IMG/VR virus record: IMGVR_UViG_2648501206_000008 | Location: 1-4,252 of that record | Strand: one strand, 5' to 3' | Origin: a virus | Taxonomy: Duplodnaviria > Heunggongvirae > Uroviricota > Caudoviricetes | Length of the DNA: 4,252 nucleotides | In this document: positions 59-724 of the stretch, piece after piece | Layout of the letters: each line of letters starts with the position of its first letter | Position numbering within the stretch: position 1 is the stretch's first letter | Notes under the pieces: generated by a model | The model's input: the letters and a program-made list of their open reading frames with translations, nothing else | Told to the model about the DNA's origin: nothing | The model's database searches: none | Made by a program: the position numbers and the translations under genes

Positions 59-409
59 TCACCTAAGCCGTTCACGGGCCGTCTTCGCCTTATGACACGG
101 CCAGCACAAACTCTGCAGATTGCAGTCAGCATCAGTGCCGCCATGCGCTTTAGGGATAATGTGGTCAACGGTTTTCGCCTCACGCACCACACCGGCACGC
201 AGGCACAACTGGCACAGGCCTTTGTCACGCTTCAGGACACGCGCGCGGATACTGTCCCACTTCGAACCGTAGCCGCGCTGATGACGGGATTGTCCAGGTT
301 TGTATTGCTTCCAGCCTTCGCCTTTGTGTTGTTCACAGCAGCCAGATGGATTTATAGTTGTTTTGCCGCACCCTCGGACCCGGCAGGCTTTAGGAGTTCG
401 TGGTGGCAT
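59..409 (-). CDS. HNH endonuclease, phage packaging-associated type (117 aa from the first ATG)
   Basis: Translation from ATG at 409..407: MPPRTPKACRVRGCGKTT...CCEQH... then DHIIPKAHGG...N...LCWPCH, i.e. an N-terminal Cys cluster plus an H-N-H core. The track ORF starts 48 nt further upstream at a TTG (457); the first ATG is at 409. The SD is weak. Its position after the lysis cassette on the same strand matches HK97-like phages, where an HNH gene precedes cos and the terminase genes. Confidence 0.8.
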   Translation of the reverse strand: MPPRTPKACRVRGCGKTTINPSGCCEQHKGEGWKQYKPGQSRHQRGYGSKWDSIRARVLKRDKGLCQLCLRAGVVREAKTVDHIIPKAHGGTDADCNLQSLCWPCHKAKTARERLR

Positions 410-412
410 AAT
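404..412 (+). promoter_or_regulatory. Candidate extended -10 promoter element (TGgCATAAT) for the plus-strand small ORF
   Basis: Plus-strand TGgCATAAT at 404..412 is a TGn + 5/6 match to the sigma70 -10 consensus, about 37 nt upstream of ATG 449. No convincing -35. It overlaps the HNH start codon on the other strand. Sequence-only guess. Confidence 0.25.
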
Positions 413-448
413 TTCTATCTCTTGTACGATTTTGAAAAGGGCAATTAC

Positions 449-700
449 ATGAATCAAGAAATAATTACCGAATTAGAAAAAGAAATTGATGAATTAAAGC
501 TTGAGACCTCTGCAAATCGCGTAATGATTAAAATCATCATGAAATATATTTCAAACACTTCTGGGATGGATGTTAATACTATTTTTCAAGAAGTCGTTGA
601 GGCGATAGCCCCTAATGATATTTCTCCTGAAAATACACCAGAAGAAATTGAACGACTACAGCAATTCAAAGAAAAGTTATTATCTTTTGGTCACGAATAA
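449..700 (+). CDS. Hypothetical small acidic protein, 83 aa, AT-rich moron-like gene on the strand opposite to the late operon
   Basis: ATG at 449 is preceded by AAAAGGG (SD-like, about 8-nt spacer); stop TAA at 698..700. Translation MNQEIITELEKEIDELKLETSANRVMIKIIMKYISNTSGMDVNTIFQEVVEAIAPNDISPENTPEEIERLQQFKEKLLSFGHE. The segment is visibly AT-rich compared with the flanking HNH and spanin genes. A GC-rich hairpin follows the stop directly. No family recognised. Confidence 0.55.
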   Translation: MNQEIITELEKEIDELKLETSANRVMIKIIMKYISNTSGMDVNTIFQEVVEAIAPNDISPENTPEEIERLQQFKEKLLSFGHE

Positions 701-705
701 TAAAT

Positions 706-724
706 AGGCGCCTTCTAGGCGCCT
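706..724. terminator. GC-rich hairpin (7-bp stem AGGCGCC/GGCGCCT, 5-nt loop) just 3' of the small plus-strand ORF; possible terminator
   Basis: aggcgcc-ttcta-ggcgcct at 706..724. On the plus strand it is followed by GAAAATAC, so no U-tract. On the minus strand it is followed by ATTTATTATT, which is T-rich. It could act for either or both strands. Confidence 0.4.

Follow-up and report, generated by a model that had tools for sequence, protein, structure and literature searches.

A probable moron-type gene of a rare protein family in the variable slot between the spanin and HNH-terminase genes of a mosaic lambdoid prophage

The DNA analysed in this study (referred to as the window, 4,252 nt in length) matched a prophage of E. 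coli PEC422 with 100% identity. The minus strand holds all of the credible genes in the window except one, an open reading frame of 83 codons that is referred to here as ORF83 (449..700, plus strand). The minus-strand genes, in the order of their transcription, were as follows.

3571..4251, minus strand: DUF968 protein
2805..3557, minus strand: antiterminator Q
2423..2602, minus strand: 59-aa zinc-ribbon ORF
1894..2211, minus strand: holin
1431..1907, minus strand: GH24 lysozyme
1055..1447, minus strand: Rz-like i-spanin with a DUF2570 match, flanking gene (from the ORF list and a family match)
895..1236, minus strand: LysC/Rz1-like o-spanin with a lipobox (LLTGC), flanking gene (RefSeq annotation)
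59..409, minus strand: HNH endonuclease, flanking gene

Beyond the window, HNH was followed by the genes for a P27-family small terminase, the large terminase, the portal, an HK97-type protease and capsid, and a contractile tail. The picture given in the first-pass annotation, of a late operon running from lysis through HNH to packaging, was therefore correct as judged by gene annotation, including that of the genes outside the window.

Several features of the late genes were noted in passing. The Rz-like i-spanin ORF (DUF2570, E = 7e-5) was absent from the RefSeq annotation of PEC422, in which LysC/Rz1 is given as 113 aa. The position of the lipobox suggests a shorter true o-spanin, starting at MMIVLHVLC, and the o-spanin gene reaches approximately 160 nt past the Rz stop, which is an overlapped and not an embedded architecture. 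Downstream of Q, the region 2672-2800 (minus strand) probably harbours the late promoter and a tR'-type terminator; the putative promoter consists of TTGCAT, 17 nt and TAGGAT, and is followed by GAACCCGC...GCGGGTTTTTTTG. The sole Rfam match in the window, a sub-threshold Trp_leader (25.5 bits against a cut-off of 41, E = 0.047), fell on this same region and probably just reflects the terminator. A second moron-like island was present between Q and the holin gene. It consists of the Cys-rich, zinc-ribbon-like 59-aa ORF (RefSeq hypothetical protein WP_023154804.1) in a trough of 34-40% GC, flanked by two strong minus-strand terminator-like hairpins (2699-2678 and 2407-2386). Elsewhere the slot between Q and holin was occupied by DUF3800 (in TUM18781), by SocA/Panacea (in locus L008, described below) and by TerB plus a KAP NTPase (in locus L009).

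The features at and around ORF83 were the following.

449..700, plus strand: ORF83, 83 aa and a stop codon; RefSeq WP_021530159.1 ('hypothetical protein'), phrog_38309
436..441, plus strand: SD-like AAAGGG, 7 nt before the ATG (read from the sequence)
404..412, plus strand: candidate extended -10, TGGCATAAT, overlapping the HNH start codon on the other strand (407-409)
705..725, no strand assigned: GC-rich hairpin with a 9-bp stem and a 3-nt loop, 5 nt past the ORF83 stop (folding and terminator scan)
725..894, no strand assigned: unannotated spacer of 170 nt between the hairpin and the LysC/Rz1 stop (895), within the module
412..930, no strand assigned: variable cargo module with no counterpart in related prophages (alignment with the empty L003 site and with L005)

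A longer ORF of 202 aa, listed from position 92, is the ORF83 frame extended back to an upstream ATG. ORF83 itself had a GC content of 31.3%. The 150-nt windows over 401-600 had 29% GC, the minimum of the whole window, compared with 54-59% in HNH and 41-59% in the spanin region, and the composition test against the neighbouring genes set ORF83 (29-31%) apart from HNH (54-59%). The first-pass annotation had described an acidic 83-aa ORF, antisense to the late operon and separated from its neighbours by a step in GC content. All three points held: the ORF is present, with a predicted pI of 4.5, it is the only plus-strand gene in the window, and the step was confirmed by windowed GC. The gene had also been described as wedged between the spanin genes and HNH; its location is correct, but it does not lie flush against the spanin genes, from which it is separated by the spacer.

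Homologues of ORF83 were sought by an exhaustive HMMER search of 1.84 billion representative proteins. Only five matches were obtained, two of which were full-length proteins of 83 aa (P0006, E = 1.6e-7; P0007, E = 4.7e-5). Both were 34-35% identical to ORF83 and aligned with it without gaps, and they were 48% identical to each other. The nucleotide identity of ORF83 to these two homologues at codon positions 1, 2 and 3 was 0.54/0.64/0.35 and 0.43/0.63/0.37, respectively, and each of the five other frames at ORF83 contained 2-13 stops. This pattern (position 2 above 1 above 3), together with the stops in the other frames, indicates selection on the protein. The gene was also called independently by PGAP (as WP_021530159.1) and by PHROGs (as phrog_38309). 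The ratio dN/dS was unusable, because the distant homologues were saturated and just two variable sites of the ORF were seen among the E. coli copies (V42I and a silent change at R69). ORF83 is short, is almost without variation among the E. coli copies and has no known domain, as a chance ORF in AT-rich non-coding filler would be. Such an origin is nonetheless refuted to the point of being negligible, by the detection of homologues of the same length and synteny at these E values in a library of 1.8 billion proteins, by a codon-position pattern typical of coding DNA and by the two independent gene calls. Judged from its sequence conservation, ORF83 is a genuine protein-coding gene under selection.

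The protein P0005 (58 aa, '77% identical') was rejected as a natural variant, because its contig (L010) has scattered transitions and interrupts the ORF with an early stop codon. This contig of 965 nt (Logan SRR9067155) is a copy of the HNH-ORF83 locus with approximately 90% identity (estimated by eye), and one end of it resembles what we take to be a Nextera adapter bearing transitions. To judge from its sequence, it looks like the product of error-laden or mutagenised reads.

The region between the two flanking genes was compared among related prophages. In the 1204 complete E. coli genomes that matched the flanks, homology of approximately 87-90% ended at the HNH start codon and restarted near position 930, so that the module lies between the HNH start codon and the 3' part of the o-spanin gene. 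Among the matches sampled, at least eight different flank-to-flank distances were seen. Of 5426 complete E. coli genomes, 12 carried ORF83, corresponding to 12 of the 1204 genomes with matching flanks; strains PEC422, D1 and FEX669 are among the carriers. The other fillings of the slot included the following.

L003: empty, with 26 nt from HNH to LysC
L005: approximately 290 nt of unrelated DNA
L002: two hypothetical genes, plus strand
L004: a GrlR-family gene, late strand
L006: a 184-aa hypothetical gene, minus (late) strand

Presence and absence between conserved flanks were thus both observed, the site being empty in L003 and holding other cargo in L002, L004, L005 and L006. This agrees with the earlier proposal of a cargo site between the lysis and packaging genes, since related prophages with flanks that are 87-90% identical are empty or otherwise filled at this position, and it supports the reading of ORF83 as cargo, that is, as a moron. 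A repeat search did not find flanking direct or inverted repeats that would hint at a transposable unit, and Rfam and tRNA scans of the cargo module found nothing. The spacer contains a minus-strand ORF of 48 codons without a family match; by eye, five variable sites were counted in the spacer and two in ORF83 among five near-identical copies.

Five carrier copies were aligned, four of them from E. coli records and one from an IMG/VR contig. A block of about 1 kb (approximately 273-1250, comprising the 5' half of HNH, ORF83, the spacer and LysC) was almost invariant among them, and outside this block both sides diverged by several percent. This suggests a recent recombinational spread, with junctions inside HNH and Rz. 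The region comprising the lysis genes, ORF83, HNH and the structural genes was found joined to two different early regions, one with Rha, KilA-N and DUF968 (PEC422) and one that is lambda-like, with exo-bet-gam, O-P and NinE (TUM18781). In both backbones, the orientation of ORF83 was that of the cI-like XRE repressor. One of the records examined (L018, NZ_AP023208.1, 'plasmid pMTY18781-3', 70 kb) carries lateral flagella genes, dinB, pepD, gpt, crl, phoE, proBA and a tRNA-Thr gene in addition to the integrated prophage, and appears to be a chromosomal fragment mislabelled as a plasmid.

Both distant homologues were located in Enterobacter-type prophages, one in an Enterobacter sp. assembly and one in a Logan assembly (L008 and L009). 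At both loci the homologue was antisense and lay between a holin-lysozyme-Rz cluster and HNH-TerS(P27)-TerL. These loci were also AT-rich troughs, with 36-37% GC compared with 50-63% in the flanks. Both distant homologues thus preserve the reading frame as well as the place and strand of the gene, and the lack of frame conservation among homologous loci, which the first-pass annotation had named as part of a refutation, was not seen. That prophages of E. coli and of the Enterobacter type share the place, strand, length and AT-richness of the gene, at a protein identity of 35%, argues for a selected function. In both loci, the slot also contained a late-strand gene of 210 or 280 aa beside HNH, and minus-strand terminator-like hairpins. 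In L008 it additionally contained a gene of 85 aa (8320-8577, minus strand) that converges on the ORF83 homologue and encodes an Acb2/Tad1 hairpin domain (Pfam PF24729, 38.9 bits, E = 1e-9, above the cut-off). A conserved partner gene of ORF83 was not found in the contexts of the window, L008 and L009; with no gene consistently paired with it, ORF83 was considered to be a solitary gene.

A stretch of approximately 115 nt, about 95% conserved between L008 (approximately 7645-7760) and L009 (approximately 7750-7865) on the minus strand, was also observed in surroundings of unconserved DNA. It lies directly upstream of the 210- or 280-aa late-strand gene and is preceded on the minus strand by a terminator-like hairpin (approximately 7882-7862). 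It could be a structured leader; a search of Rfam with the L008 copy gave no match.

The gene had been credited with its own expression signals. The SD-like sequence is of moderate quality and stood as described, and AAGGAG is present at a similar distance from the start in the L008 homologue. The case for the promoter was weaker than described. The motif TGGCATAAT exists 37 nt before the ORF83 ATG, but TGNTATAAT with one mismatch occurred four times in the window against 3.4 expected, which is the level of chance. The motif was not called by a sigma-70 promoter scan, and the -35 region upstream of it (CAGGCT) is poor. The CAT at 407-409 is the HNH start codon read on the opposite strand, so that TGGCAT belongs to conserved HNH coding sequence, and alignment with the empty site indicated that only the last three bases of the motif come from the insert. 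The DNA upstream of ORF83, including the -10 motif, was not conserved in the homologues.

The existence of the GC-rich hairpin after the stop was well supported (-14.9 kcal/mol, z = -4.5; none of 200 shuffled sequences folded as well), but not its use as a terminator for ORF83. On the plus strand, GAAAAUAC comes after the hairpin and there is no U-tract; a U-rich tail, AUUUAUUAUU, is found on the minus strand instead, and the scan called the hairpin terminator-like in that direction. A stable hairpin followed the stop in all three lineages, and a plus-strand U-tract was present in none. With the promoter motif at chance level and the hairpin lacking a plus-strand U-tract, the earlier description of a gene equipped with signals of its own was not sustained. 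The hairpin may terminate transcription on the minus strand or on both strands, or it may stabilise the 3' end of the ORF83 mRNA.

The minus-strand U-rich tail, the minus-strand terminator-like hairpins of L008 and L009 and the stable hairpins after all three homologues might indicate that the module acts at the level of RNA or transcription, with the hairpin or convergent transcription shielding HNH and the terminase genes, in lysogens, from transcription that leaks out of the lysis region, and with the ORF as a secondary element. This is unlikely, because it is the protein and not the DNA that is conserved: third codon positions were just 35-37% identical while the exact length of 83 codons and a heptad pattern were kept, the upstream DNA was unconserved, and related prophages function with an empty slot.

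The ORF83 product has 17 D+E against 8 K+R residues and an N-terminus that is not hydrophobic, and the predicted pI was 4.5-4.9 across all three lineages. Among the conserved positions were I/L residues spaced in a heptad-like manner along helix 1, the motif Y-[IL]-S-[NQ]-T-S-G-x-D at the end of this helix, and a P-E...R...K pattern in the last one. An AF2 model built from a four-sequence alignment had helices at residues 3-35, 42-52 and 64-82 (pLDDT 73, pTM 0.47, moderate confidence). The product is thus modelled as a small, soluble, acidic three-helix protein, with a first helix that is long and leucine-zipper-like. It lacks a signal peptide, a DNA-binding motif and a catalytic motif.

By profile search, ORF83 is a member of phrog_38309 (full-length match, residues 1-83 of 83, E = 1.2e-57), and the two homologues matched the same family at 1e-13 and 4e-10. 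This family, and the distant phrog_16546, are PHROGs families without functional annotation, and phrog_38309 is absent from Pfam and NCBIfam. Searches of the ORF83 family against Pfam, NCBIfam and PADLOC gave sub-threshold matches only, none of which was common to all three lineages; those to the PADLOC defence models were noise (at most 17 bits) and differed between members. A PDB sequence profile search gave nothing below E = 0.26, and fold searches with the ORF83 model gave generic helical matches only. Matches to LZ3wCH (18 bits) and Csn2 (17 bits) were rejected, being sub-threshold and absent from the divergent members. The earlier description of the product as unrecognised, helical and acidic was concordant with these results, in that it has a pI of 4.5 and three predicted helices and is claimed by no known family. 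No carrier phage was found in the GenBank phage set by blastn in distant mode or by tblastn with two family members, a scan of GTDB genomes gave no confirmed match, and scans of IMG/VR and metagenomes returned only identical copies of ORF83.

Some of the sub-threshold matches pointed to small regulators. A RelB/ParD antitoxin match reached 17.2 bits against a cut-off of 60, and one family member matched IraP in NCBIfam (E = 0.027). IraP (86 aa) is similar to ORF83 in size, acidity, helical content and single-gene organisation, and in having a leucine-zipper-like helix at the N-terminus and shorter helices after it. It is nevertheless very improbable that ORF83 is an orphan antitoxin-like (RelB/ParD) or anti-adaptor-like (IraP) regulator. 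Of the four members scanned, two had the RelB/ParD match and one the IraP match, so that neither spans the three lineages, and hhalign against what we take to be the IraP sequence gave a probability of 7.6%; the likeness to IraP is one of form, and homology is not supported. Neither a toxin gene nor any same-strand gene adjoins ORF83 or its homologues in the three contexts. Membership of both families was largely refuted at the sequence level by score, sharing and neighbours.

In phage lambda, bor is a single accessory gene that lies after Rz/Rz1 and before the packaging genes, is oriented against the late operon and is expressed in the lysogen. The moron concept itself is reportedly that of Juhala et al. 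(2000), for HK97 and HK022. ORF83 resembles bor and other lambdoid morons in position, orientation, distinct composition and patchy presence among related genomes. Unlike ORF83, which has neither a signal peptide nor a lipobox, Bor is a lipoprotein of the outer membrane that has both. The N-terminus of ORF83, MNQEIITELEKEIDELK, is charged, the whole protein is devoid of cysteine, and there was no match to the Pfam Bor family. A working definition of a moron has been given in a study of LF82 prophages, in which more than one third of the transcriptionally defined morons were without known function (bioRxiv 10.1101/2022.10.28.514194). The earlier view of ORF83 as separately acquired cargo was strengthened by the presence and absence of the gene in the slot, by the AT-rich trough and by the conservation of the frame in the homologues. 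On balance, we favour the view that ORF83 is a moron-type accessory gene in the hypervariable slot between the spanin and HNH-terminase genes of a mosaic lambdoid prophage, probably expressed in the lysogen and probably with a product that binds another protein.

From its orientation, and from that only, we infer that ORF83 would be expressed from the prophage state. A weak promoter of its own would drive the gene while the prophage is repressed, and after induction the convergent late transcription would overrun and silence it. The hairpin would define or stabilise the 3' end of the ORF83 mRNA, and may also halt minus-strand read-through that is not antiterminated before it reaches the packaging genes. 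As the predicted product is soluble, acidic and helical, and has no enzymatic or DNA-binding motif, it probably works by binding to protein. It might act stoichiometrically, binding another protein and then blocking or redirecting it, although we hold this with low confidence. The target would probably be a host protein or a protein of an incoming phage, in phage-phage or phage-host conflict. With an Acb2-like gene in the same slot and defence-type cargo in the slot between Q and holin, a role in conflict is the most plausible guess by analogy.

The Acb2/Tad1-like gene of L008 is on the late strand, which implies that the cargo of this slot is not necessarily for the lysogen. ORF83 could be viewed as an accessory of the lytic cycle, functioning in counter-defence or host takeover, with a promoter of its own that would be active on infection or induction and not in the repressed prophage. 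The slot can hold counter-defence cargo, as the Acb2/Tad1 domain (E = 1e-9) indicates, and phage inhibitors are commonly small, acidic, helical proteins. This explanation is possible but doubtful, as ORF83 is antisense to the late operon, where Q-modified polymerases would collide with its transcription, and as it matches no defence or anti-defence family. The resemblance to the Acb2/Tad1 sponges is one of location, a gene with this domain being present in the same inter-module slot beside the L008 homologue; ORF83 differs in having no match to the domain, in lying on the opposite strand and in being predicted to form a plain helical bundle.

Part of this description is already known, as ORF83 is annotated as a hypothetical protein and as a PHROG, and morons between Rz and the packaging genes are textbook knowledge. 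The evidence of selection, the conserved placement of the gene across genera at 35% identity and the recognition that the HNH/spanin junction is a swap site with multiple alleles are new. The ORF83 family is strikingly rare, and rare ORFan morons are common in prophages. For the understanding of phage genomes in general, ORF83 leaves the picture unchanged and adds one more member to a large pool of prophage morons. Tentatively, the family might represent a new and very rare group of small acidic coiled-coil prophage proteins that neutralise a specific protein of the host or of a rival phage, acting as a superinfection-exclusion or counter-defence effector at a lysis/packaging hot spot. The HNH/spanin junction of these prophages with P27/HK97-type packaging, at which at least six different fillings are exchanged, is a rich site that could be mined systematically for defence and counter-defence genes.
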